Below, one piece after another: positions 28,666 to 30,492 of a stretch of 64,000 bases of DNA (its first letter is position 1; each line of letters begins with the position of its first letter). The notes below the pieces were generated by a model. It was not told the DNA's origin, did not search any database, and saw nothing but the letters and a program-made list of their open reading frames with translations. The DNA is from Candidatus Heimdallarchaeota archaeon (GTDB lineage: Archaea > Asgardarchaeota > Heimdallarchaeia > Heimdallarchaeales > Heimdallarchaeaceae): NCBI GenBank assembly GCA_019057815.1, contig JAHLWR010000005.1, positions 1 through 64,000 on the forward strand, given 5' to 3'. The translations under genes and the position numbers were made by a program.

Positions 28666-30492
28666 ATGTGTGGCATAGTTGGTATTGTTCAGAACAATAA
28701 AAGTAAAATTGGTAAACAGATTATTGATTCATTAACAAAATTAGAGTATAGAGGGTATGATAGTTTAGGAATTGCATCGATTACTAATGGTGCTCTGCTA
28801 ATCGCAAAAGACAAAGGAAAAATCGCAGAGGTTACTGAAAAGATCGATATTGAAAAAATTGAAGGGAAGGTAGCAATAGGTCACACGCGTTGGGCTACCC
28901 ATGGTCGACCTAGTAAGGAAAATGCCCATCCTCACACGGATTGTAACAAACAAATTTCTGTTATTCAGAATGGTATTATTGAAAATTTCATTGAACTTAG
29001 AAATGAACTTTTAGAACAAGGCCATACATTCCTTTCTGAAACAGATACTGAAATCATCCCCCACATGATTGAGCAGGTTTTGCAAGAGGAGGAGGTTTCC
29101 CTTAAGGAAGCTATTATCAGCGTTATCAATCGTCTTGAAGGAACATACGCAATTTGTATTATTTCAACGCTTGAACCAGATAAGATTTTTTGTGCTAAGA
29201 AAGACAGTCCATTAGTTATTGGAATTGACAAAGATAGGATGTTTTGCGCCTCTGACATCCCTGCGTTTCTGTCTTCTACTCAACGAGTTACACTACTCCA
29301 TGATGAGGAATTTCTCACTCTCACTTCTAGCGGTTACGAAATTCTTGATTTAAAAAGTAAAAAACCTATCAAACGACGGTCTTACACTGTTTCCTGGAAG
29401 CCAGAAATGGCACAAAAGGCGGGTTTCCCACATTTTATGCTTAAAGAAATTCATGAGCAACCTCGGGCGCTTAGTGATTATATTCGTATTAAACAGCCTT
29501 CTGTTATCAATATAGCTGAAAAAATTTACCAAGCTGAAAAAGTTTTTTTCCTTGCTGCAGGCACCGCTCATTATTCAACTCTTACTGGTCAACATCTTGT
29601 CCGTAAGTACGCTCAGAAATCTTGTAACTCAATTATTGCTTCTGAATACGATTCCATACGCAACATAGTTGATGAACATACTGTTATTGTTCCTGTTTCT
29701 CAGAGTGGTGAAACCATGGATACCATCATGGCTATCAAAGATGCTCGCAGTCAAGGCGCCTCTATTCTTTCTGCGGTTAACGTTATTGGTAGTACTATCA
29801 CTCGCCATTCTGATGAAGTCGTTTACCTTTACGCTGGTCCTGAAATAGGCGTCGCTGCTACTAAAACTTACCTAGCACAAACTACTGCTATTTGGGACAT
29901 CAGTCTCGAACTTGGTCGTATTTCTGGTTATTTAGATGATAATGATTATCGTTCCTTTCGTAACCTTTTTACCTCTCTCCCTTCTGCAGTTTCTAGGGTT
30001 ATTGCTAGTAACGAAGCTCTTTCTAATCGTATTGCTTCTTGGTTTGCTCGCAAATCTAGCAGTTTTTACCTAGCACGTGGGATAAACATTCAAACCGCTA
30101 ACGAAGGGGCATTAAAAATGAAGGAAATAGCTTACATCCACAGTGAATCATATCCTGCAGGAGAATCAAAACATGGACCAATAGCTCTAGTAGAAGAAGA
30201 TTATCCAGTAGTATTTATAACTCCACCAGACCAAACAAGGAAATTAATAATAGGAAATATTATGGAAATGAAAGCTAGGGGAGCAACAACGATAGCAGTG
30301 ATGGAAAAGGGAGATAAAGAAATAGAAGAAATGACAAAGTGGCAGTTTAAAATACCAGAAGGATACGGGGAAATGTTCTCAACAATAACATATGTGGTAC
30401 CAATGCAAATGATGGCATACTATACAGCAGTAAGACTAGGATATTCACCAGACATGCCAAGGAACTTAGCGAAGGCAGTGACAGTACTATAA
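28666..30492 (+). CDS. glmS: Glutamine--fructose-6-phosphate aminotransferase
   Basis: MCGIVG, GHTRWATHG, SQSGET, KHGPIAL, PRNLAKAVTV. Confidence 0.98.
   Translation: MCGIVGIVQNNKSKIGKQIIDSLTKLEYRGYDSLGIASITNGALLIAKDKGKIAEVTEKIDIEKIEGKVAIGHTRWATHGRPSKENAHPHTDCNKQISVIQNGIIENFIELRNELLEQGHTFLSETDTEIIPHMIEQVLQEEEVSLKEAIISVINRLEGTYAICIISTLEPDKIFCAKKDSPLVIGIDKDRMFCASDIPAFLSSTQRVTLLHDEEFLTLTSSGYEILDLKSKKPIKRRSYTVSWKPEMAQKAGFPHFMLKEIHEQPRALSDYIRIKQPSVINIAEKIYQAEKVFFLAAGTAHYSTLTGQHLVRKYAQKSCNSIIASEYDSIRNIVDEHTVIVPVSQSGETMDTIMAIKDARSQGASILSAVNVIGSTITRHSDEVVYLYAGPEIGVAATKTYLAQTTAIWDISLELGRISGYLDDNDYRSFRNLFTSLPSAVSRVIASNEALSNRIASWFARKSSSFYLARGINIQTANEGALKMKEIAYIHSESYPAGESKHGPIALVEEDYPVVFITPPDQTRKLIIGNIMEMKARGATTIAVMEKGDKEIEEMTKWQFKIPEGYGEMFSTITYVVPMQMMAYYTAVRLGYSPDMPRNLAKAVTVL

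Follow-up and report, generated by a model that had tools for sequence, protein, structure and literature searches.

The window analysed here comprises 64,000 nucleotides (positions 1 to 64,000 of the forward strand of contig JAHLWR010000005.1) from the assembly GCA_019057815.1 of a Candidatus Heimdallarchaeota archaeon. Its main subject is glmS, the gene for glutamine--fructose-6-phosphate transaminase, in which a stretch of codons that end almost uniformly in a pyrimidine gives way to a stretch of codons that end almost uniformly in a purine. The source genome (G000; 3.7 Mb, 33% GC, 48 contigs) belongs to a genus, g1, that also holds G001 (8H_bin2). The sister genus is labelled g3, two further genera are labelled g2 and g4, and the relatives used for comparison are metagenome-assembled genomes (MAGs) deposited as Candidatus Heimdallarchaeota. 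A comparison of glmS with the whole genome by tblastn and blastn returned the self-match alone, and thus no second copy or fragment of the gene. The parts of glmS to which we refer below are the following.

28654..30492, + strand: glmS, 612 aa; Pfam GATase_6/7 and two SIS stretches; NCBIfam TIGR01135, E 2e-203
28654..29466, + strand: 5' part, codons 1-271, whose endings lean mildly towards pyrimidine (four-fold pyrimidine fraction 0.62, n=102)
29467..30054, + strand: pyrimidine-ending block, codons 272-467, approximately coextensive with the first SIS domain (T 74, C 19, A 6 and G 2 of 101 four-fold sites)
30055..30153, + strand: transition zone, codons 468-500, with mixed endings; encodes the best-conserved part of the protein (four-fold pyrimidine fraction 0.45, n=11)
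30154..30180, + strand: 27-nt stretch CCTGCAGGAGAATCAAAACATGGACCA at the left edge of the purine block, delimited in an alignment of 21 3' ends
30154..30489, + strand: purine-ending block, codons 501-612 (46 of 50 four-fold sites purine; A 40, G 6, T 4, C 0)

Size and rank of the codon switch

The counts given in the initial annotation proved exact: 22 of the 23 four-fold codons in 29941-30060 end in T or C, and 33 of the 34 in 30241-30489 end in A or G. Over the gene as a whole, the pyrimidine fraction at four-fold sites reaches 0.92 in codons 272-467 (93 of 101 sites, or 94 of 101 when counted over 29470-30060), and beyond the transition zone it falls to 0.11 in codons 501-590 (n=36) and to 0.00 in codons 591-612 (n=14), that is, to 8% for codons 501-612 together. 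The genome mean is 0.535, and the two blocks differ with a Fisher p of 1.2e-25. The flip takes about 100 bases. On its left side the pyrimidine bias climbs towards the junction, from 0.70 to 0.90, and on its right side the purine bias ends at the stop codon. The reported shift in Arg and Ile codons holds as well, with Arg going from CGY (10 of 11) to AGR (4 of 4) and Ile from ATY (17 of 21) to ATA (8 of 9). The 5' part, which had been described as mixed, in fact leans mildly towards pyrimidines, its fraction of 0.62 comparing with 0.38-0.48 in the sister genus g3.

The transition zone shares 90-100% of its amino acids with orthologs within the family. The 27-nt stretch that follows it encodes P-A-G-E-S-K-H-G-P and is near-identical across genera, also at its silent positions, down to a protein identity of about 50%. 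This makes it a candidate recognition sequence, or else it is constrained in another way.

Within the genome the switch is exceptional. Among the 1858 open reading frames (ORFs) of at least 250 aa, glmS shows the largest within-gene change in third-position pyrimidine content, from 0.88 to 0.20, where the 99.9th percentile of the change is 0.57; for junctions at four-fold sites it ties for the top position (0.72). The proposed recurrence of the purine excess in the minus-strand gene downstream is weak: at about 31313-31483, 24 of 29 sites conform, which yields a log-likelihood score of 4.8. This falls short of the segment threshold of 8, where chance already gives about 20 segments of each polarity. 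The view that codon selection does not explain the switch was borne out for ordinary selection linked to expression. The four-fold pyrimidine fraction is 0.52-0.56 in the genes of the ribosomal proteins L2, L3, L4 and L23, 0.57 in that of EF-1alpha, 0.58 in that of EF-2 and 0.62-0.68 in those of the thermosome. The ribosomal protein genes and EF-1alpha thus lie at the genome mean, far from the 0.92 and 0.08 of the glmS blocks, and the pattern is therefore not the codon bias of highly expressed genes.

Age and inheritance of the two blocks

The protein gives no sign of the switch. In a comparison with 19 orthologs the amino-acid identity shows no break in either block; across the blocks, codon position 2 keeps its purine content and position 1 changes only slightly in this respect. 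GlmS is a vertically inherited protein, and only the freely choosable positions of its gene have been recoded, in place.

The distribution of the blocks over the relatives shows that they differ in age. In the glmS tree the genera g1 and g3 fall in one clade (support 96/97). The purine block is found, with or without the downstream island, in all 24 sampled genomes of this clade, at 69-75% identity and with pyrimidine fractions of 0.06-0.32. The same region has fractions of 0.46-0.57 in g4, in g2 and in more distant Heimdall MAGs. The pyrimidine block is specific to g1, every other ortholog having a fraction of 0.35-0.59 over codons 272-467. When 20 genomes are pooled, the purine block begins at about codon 495 (0.17), is strongest in codons 527-597 (0.03-0.15) and finishes some 15-20 codons before the stop codon. 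The core that is common to the whole sister clade thus spans codons ~527-597, and the extension to the stop codon is found in g1 only.

Within the purine block the individual bases have turned over. At its four-fold columns A and G interchange nearly everywhere, T is uncommon and about 400 sites contain a single C. Moreover, in every region g1 and g3 agree at four-fold sites about as often as composition alone predicts (0.35 versus 0.33 in the 5' part, 0.51 versus 0.44 in the block), and the silent sites are therefore saturated. Given this saturation, the purine block is neither a decaying relic nor a recent transfer, but has been maintained or re-made. Between G000 and G001 purine-pyrimidine changes make up about 25% of the glmS differences in every region of the gene.

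A purine block at the same end of the gene recurs in a second glmS lineage, represented by two genes with four-fold pyrimidine fractions of 0.00-0.14. These genes are 53% identical to each other and 40% identical to the G000 gene (as measured for L231). A metagenome scan for relatives of this lineage gave nothing above 48% identity and a class-wide genome search nothing above 45%.

We favour, with moderate confidence, the reading that the switch is the junction of two independent, in-place silent recodings of a vertically inherited glmS that differ in age, and that the purine block is maintained by a pressure at the level of base class. According to this proposal the purine block would date from the common ancestor of g1 and g3, with its left edge at the conserved motif around codon 495-505, and would have been kept in every sampled descendant despite the complete turnover of its silent sites. 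Only in g1 would the pyrimidine block of codons 272-467 have arisen and the purine block have been extended as far as the stop codon. The pressure would pick purine or pyrimidine wherever the protein permits, leaving the choice within the class to the background. It could be a form of selection, or else a fixation bias at the level of the class, with strand composition or tRNA class (G34 versus U34/C34 anticodons) as its target. The class could be read through the tRNA pool or through properties of the RNA or DNA strand, or it could reflect a self-sustaining mutation bias. A class-level pressure kept so long at glmS would more likely be selection than damage chemistry.

Polarised coding segments in the genome and the nature of the pressure

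The blocks of glmS have many counterparts in the genome. We found 163 pyrimidine-loaded and 117 purine-loaded coding segments in G000, where shuffling yields about 20 of each; the pyrimidine block of glmS ranks 8th among the former and its purine block 9th among the latter. Coding segments whose four-fold endings are almost exclusively of one class number about 270 in all, where some 35-40 are expected. At the level of 400-nt windows, about 76 have a purine content of at least 66% or at most 34%. The whole genes that are most extreme are accessory ones, with pyrimidine fractions of 0.94 for cas6 (C46:79299-80228), 0.85 for hsdR (C38:163629-166838), 0.82 for a TFB paralog, 0.17 for cas1 and 0.03 for genes of unknown function; a further example of a patch lies at C38:153744-154694. 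Core genes are affected as well. The EF-2 gene (C43:130068-132281) resembles glmS: its codons 101-250 form a pyrimidine block and its codons 501-600 a purine block, neither of which is found outside g1, and the amino-acid profile is normal.

The composition of the segments is telling. The purine segments consist of A.69, G.20, T.09 and C.02, the pyrimidine segments of T.70, C.155, A.115 and G.03, and the two kinds are thus mirror images in which the base ratio within the class equals the 82:18 of the background. The force therefore acts on the purine/pyrimidine class alone, which argues against the chemistry of break damage. The flanks of the segments share their polarity weakly over the genome (r ~-0.12), and the bias is largely confined to coding sequence. 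The density of patches per 10^4 four-fold sites is 8.2 in G000, 9.7 in a g4 genome and 2.5 in the g3 genome G012, for which the null is 1.1. As patchiness in g3 is near the null, the purine block of glmS is exceptional in that genus. All patches that were tested in G000 against G001 are common to both, at 94-96% identity, so that this pair is uninformative on how a patch is born.

These same observations can be read as neutral. A context-dependent, self-reinforcing mutation bias, by which a pyrimidine among purines tends to become a purine and vice versa wherever the protein allows, would let homopurine and homopyrimidine domains nucleate, sharpen and persist, and glmS would then be a case of two such domains that abut by chance. 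The presence of both polarities with sharp junctions fits this explanation, as do the compositional mirror symmetry of the segments, the variation of their density by genus (8.2, 9.7 and 2.5), the in-place and lineage-specific patches of EF-2, and the weakly constrained genes that are altered at the protein level. It nevertheless fails to account for a purine block whose position and edges are constant in 24 genomes, including those of a genus with near-null patchiness, and that reappears at the corresponding end in a glmS lineage with only 40% identity. Moreover, the local residues are not unusually purine-rich at codon positions 1 and 2, the g4 orthologs have a similar protein and no block, and the flanking non-coding DNA shares the bias only weakly. 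We therefore regard a purely neutral origin as unlikely.

A more specific proposal is that Heimdall-group archaea split their coding stretches between two decoding pools, G34 tRNAs reading the pyrimidine-ending codons and U34/C34 tRNAs the purine-ending ones, and thereby possess a switchable control of elongation. The purine block of glmS would be one selected instance of this control and the polarised defence genes would be others. It is consistent with the class-only force, with a glmS block that ends at the stop codon and with the tRNA genes, which as far as detected follow a GNN/UNN/CNN pattern in the four-fold boxes (25 tRNAs, found by aragorn without intron search; the set is incomplete). 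We put it forward as a speculation, and a rather doubtful one.

Several points weigh against maintenance by selection, and hence against the reading that we prefer. The upstream stretch of cas6 is, like the coding strand of this gene, almost all pyrimidine, and the third positions of two-fold codons shift as well (0.66 versus 0.50). A skew in non-coding DNA, reshaped proteins and shifted two-fold codons would not be produced by a force that operates purely at the tRNA level. Selection, in addition, is inferred solely from the persistence and the class-level signature of the block, and a self-sustaining mutation bias could persist just as well. Likewise, the purine block of g1, g3 and the second lineage could stem from recurrent origin instead of continuous maintenance, and the sample in which the block was followed consists of MAGs.

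Two phenomena known from coding sequences in general come close to what is seen in glmS. The first is the mild genome-wide purine excess on the mRNA-synonymous strand described by Szybalski's transcription-direction rule and Forsdyke's purine-loading hypothesis. As in purine loading, there is an excess of purines on the coding strand of glmS that involves the freely choosable positions and the class and not the base (46 of 50 sites in codons 501-612, with Arg always AGR). Here, however, the bias is patchy within the gene and near-absolute (92% and 8%), one of the blocks is fixed in position across a clade, and both polarities occur, with as many as 163 pyrimidine-loaded coding segments. The second consists of the conserved clusters of rare codons that have been proposed to pace co-translational folding. 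With these glmS shares the presence of one codon class at the same place in the protein despite silent turnover, the blocks moreover following the two SIS domains approximately. In contrast to rare codons, A-ending codons are not rare in G000, where they make up 38% of the four-fold sites; the variable is purine versus pyrimidine over all amino acids, and no link with expression level is seen.

Some other explanations for the blocks were tried and rejected. A long-range hairpin between the two blocks in the mRNA is not indicated, as 29650-30492 folds at -200.1 kcal/mol versus -200.2 for shuffled sequence (z = 0.02) and no long inverted repeat was found. The region 28400-33300 has no match to a known RNA family in Rfam up to E = 1. 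An overlapping gene is not indicated either: of the alternative frames across the block, four are open in 0 of 18 sequences and one in 6 of 18, and the longest antisense ORF beneath the pyrimidine block has 80 aa. A zone of antisense terminators (T-runs on the minus strand) would predict a preference of A over G, but A/(A+G) is 0.80 in the block and 0.82 in the background. Finally, an older purine patch split by the insert should run on into the downstream glmU, where only a small dip is found at 33355-33594, and not at the 5' end.

Silent sites are usually taken to be near-neutral or tuned to expression, and here about 200-400 nt of an essential gene are held to one base class. At least 26 genomes have kept this one-class stretch while its silent sites turned over completely, and in one genus it adjoins a block of the other class. 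Selection as the cause would point to a novel layer of control, on strand composition or on the use of tRNA classes, in the archaea most closely related to eukaryotes; a mutational cause would amount to an unusual, domain-forming transversion bias. We did not find such patches described for Asgard archaea in the literature. In practice, such blocks break metagenome assemblies and distort codon-based tests for gene transfer.

The neighbouring putative homing endonuclease gene and the remainder of the locus

In G000 an insert of 2.7 kb separates glmS from glmU. Relatives without the insert have glmU starting about 15-100 nt after glmS; this direct adjacency, present in 10 related loci, is the ancestral arrangement. 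The genes downstream of glmS are the following.

30539..31666, - strand: truncated free-standing LAGLIDADG homing endonuclease gene (putative), 375 aa; assigned by family consensus, structural model and Foldseek
31761..32417, + strand: Cas4-like PD-(D/E)XK nuclease gene in the insert; Pfam PDDEXK_1 and Cas_Cas4; TIGR00372, E 1e-14, below its cut-off
33175..34452, + strand: archaeal glmU-type sugar-1-phosphate nucleotidylyltransferase/acetyltransferase; TIGR03992, E 3e-97

The ORF of 375 aa has no match in Pfam or NCBIfam. It belongs to a family whose full-length members have about 480-520 aa and whose consensus combines AbrB-like N-terminal repeats (with a weak match to the AbrB profile) with two LAGLIDADG-like motifs; the first has an invariant acidic residue, Asp, and the second has Glu and Asp, both conserved to 90% or more. 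The copy in G000 aligns to the consensus at 41% identity and by tblastn covers residues 1-361 of the full-length genes of L091 and L092. It keeps the first motif and lacks the second half of the endonuclease; as it ends before the second motif, it is probably dead. The AlphaFold model has a pLDDT of 90.6, and Foldseek matches it, at probabilities of 0.9-1.0, to I-DmoI (TM 0.5-0.59 by target), I-Tsp061I, PI-SceI, PI-PfuI and I-AniI. On the basis of consensus and predicted structure the neighbour is a truncated, putative LAGLIDADG homing endonuclease gene with the distribution of a selfish element, in line with the initial annotation, which had taken the adjacent DNA to be a mobile element.

The association of this family with glmS appears general. 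Outside this archaeal family all 7 contigs sampled have it beside the 3' end of glmS (records of Hodarchaeales, Helarchaeota and Nanoarchaeota plus four metagenome contigs, from Asgard and DPANN archaea), and it is also found there in 8 related MAGs; members lie at L091:5829-7385, L201:4001-5551, L202:4001-5533, L203:4001-5473 and L231-L234:3001-~4500. The orientation varies, being convergent with glmS or co-directional, and sometimes the gene stands between glmS and glmM. Its presence varies as well among close relatives: within one genus L014 has it and L013 does not, and L084 has it while L082, 92% identical at the nucleotide level in the 5' part of glmS, does not. The last ~30 codons of glmS (~581-612) are hypervariable between close relatives, the nucleotide identity of 85-98% falling to 52-70% (L093/L104, L085/L088 and L091/L092), as is expected beside a homing or insertion site. 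The extreme C-terminus of GlmS, the part nearest the insertion site, reads ...VTVL (30478-30489) in this Heimdall family and ...VTVE in the more distant orthologs L018-L020.

A selfish nuclease gene directly after the stop codon of the highly conserved glmS recalls the seg and mob genes of phage T4 and the bacterial attTn7. The likeness extends to the polymorphism between close relatives, to the decayed copies and to the use of the 3' end of glmS as a landing site, and the arrangement looks like an archaeal counterpart of such use in bacteria. It differs in that the LAGLIDADG enzyme is fused to AbrB-like repeats, is archaeal and comes without a transposase, and its presence leaves the codon blocks unexplained. 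It would nonetheless be a homing endonuclease family, if a putative one, that is dedicated to the 3' end of glmS in Asgard and DPANN archaea. Some related arrangements were also observed. In some g3 genomes the endonuclease-like sequence forms the C-terminal part of ORFs of 844-1295 aa without recognisable domains (L086:2416-6303, L087:2761-5295, L088:5861-9664). One DPANN-type glmS (L234:1-2957; product of 1032 aa) contains an intein holding a LAGLIDADG_3 domain, and in another DPANN-type contig a separate LAGLIDADG_3 gene (L233:212-1189) abuts the start of glmS.

The initial annotation had proposed three mechanisms for the switch, namely the footprint of a fixed break, a replication origin or terminus, and replacement of the 3' end of glmS; each of them fails at least one test. 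For the first, the neighbouring gene now supplies a concrete agent. A LAGLIDADG endonuclease would cut the conserved motif at about 30.10-30.18 kb, and resection followed by biased re-synthesis would purine-load the strands that are re-made. Parts of this proposal stand. The neighbour does belong to the LAGLIDADG family and the family adjoins the 3' end of glmS in all seven contigs; 5'-3' resection would produce the polarity seen in g1, with pyrimidines left and purines right on the top strand; the pyrimidine bias climbs towards the junction (from 0.70 to 0.90); and the 27-nt stretch with conserved silent sites lies at that point. In addition, a purine block accompanies a convergent endonuclease gene in 3 of 5 lineages, two of which are the second-lineage glmS genes, and a co-directional one in 0 of 4.

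The block, however, does not follow the gene. A comparison of relatives with and without the island located it in 10 relatives that have glmU directly after glmS and in 8 that have the endonuclease gene; members of the clade carry it with and without the gene alike, and it is missing from a g4 genome and a Helarchaeote that do have the gene. The left and the right block differ in age. Close pairs that differ in the endonuclease share the 3' block and diverge only in the last ~30 codons and past the stop. The insertion, and probably also the cleavage, is thereby placed at the stop codon, and from there resection should yield the reverse polarity. The genome contains 36 within-gene junctions from purine to pyrimidine against 24 from pyrimidine to purine, so that the polarity of resection is no general rule. 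Nor is there a base-specific signature of damage, as C is not depleted on the T-rich side but enriched (19% versus 9.6%). Finally, the endonuclease copy of G000 is truncated, and rare homing events are unlikely to outpace the background mutation rate. A break footprint thus appears an improbable explanation, although the polarity and the nuclease family speak for it.

A related phenomenon is that of kataegis-type clusters, in which single events leave C-to-T and G-to-A changes on the flanks of a resected double-strand break. The bias of glmS likewise switches strand at one point with 5'-3' polarity, and the gene of a site-specific nuclease is adjacent. Unlike in such clusters, the bias concerns transversion classes that are in equilibrium on an evolutionary time scale; its T-rich side shows no loss of C, its two sides are of unequal age, and junctions of opposite polarity are common in the genome.

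Alternatively, the 3' end of glmS might have been replaced by a copy that travels with the element, by co-conversion during homing, and that brought along the purine-loaded composition of mobile DNA. Free-standing homing endonucleases such as those encoded by the seg and mob genes of phage T4 are known to co-convert flanking DNA. Moreover, where a whole gene of G000 is purine-loaded it is an accessory one (cas1, a gene of PLD type and others of unknown function), close relatives show hypervariability in the final ~30 codons of glmS (a fall, for instance, from 85% to 52%) and some close pairs have diverged more at the 3' side than at the 5' side (e.g. 0.91 versus 0.78). Against this, the genome holds no partial glmS duplicate, Pfam and NCBIfam scans revealed no integrase or recombinase among the ORFs of the island, and there is no convincing direct repeat in 28600-33300. 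The block is likewise present in the 10 relatives without the insert; the 3' identity tracks the 5' identity across pairs whatever their insert status (mean residuals +0.011, -0.015 and 0.000), with no clustering by endonuclease status; and the silent-site identity between genera is not in excess of what composition predicts. The block of the sister genus, furthermore, stops about 20 codons before the stop codon, short of the part that is nearest to the element, and the endonuclease gene of G000 is itself not purine-loaded. A recent replacement of the 3' end is thus largely refuted, and replacement in any form very improbable.

An assembly chimera at about 30.1 kb, in which the contigs of two organisms would be joined inside the conserved motif, has a negligible chance of being correct. 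Many MAG contigs of relatives do break within glmS codons 385-577, but the independently assembled G001 has both blocks (the pyrimidine block at 0.90), the same junction and the same downstream genes at ~95% nucleotide identity on both sides (and 96% aa), and glmU and the flanks come from the same lineage. As G001 shows the same pattern, the switch is no assembly chimera. About ten contigs of relatives end in glmS, mostly in codons 469-577 (L096-L101, L106, L112, G010:C113, G010:C130, G011:C182 and G013:C98); these ends are likely caused by k-mers of the conserved motif and the purine block that are shared among co-occurring species.

A replication origin or terminus, suggested by a purine skew of the top strand that changes sign at a single point, has practically no probability left, as the anomaly is only about 1 kb long among ordinary neighbour genes, the top-strand four-fold purine content in 5-kb bins dips to 0.38 at 25-30 kb with no lasting change of sign (0.53-0.60 over 0-25 kb, 0.54-0.62 over 30-60 kb), and the Orc1/Cdc6 genes (with a Cdc6_C domain) lie at least 72 kb away, at 102.8 kb and 191 kb of contig C12 and on C27. 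On C12 the top strand is mildly purine-rich (0.52-0.66) over 0-60 kb and 160-195 kb, with genes of both directions, and near 0.47-0.50 over 65-90 kb; this is a skew at the scale of the contig, independent of the direction of transcription.

Finally, a purine-rich motif of 17 nt, GAGTAAAAAAGAGAGAA, is present together with two near copies at 28600-28616, 32412-32428 and 33152-33168. Two of the three precede glmS and glmU, and the third, which stands ahead of a small ORF at 32493, runs over the 3' end of the Cas4-like gene. The motif may be a shared leader or a promoter-proximal element.

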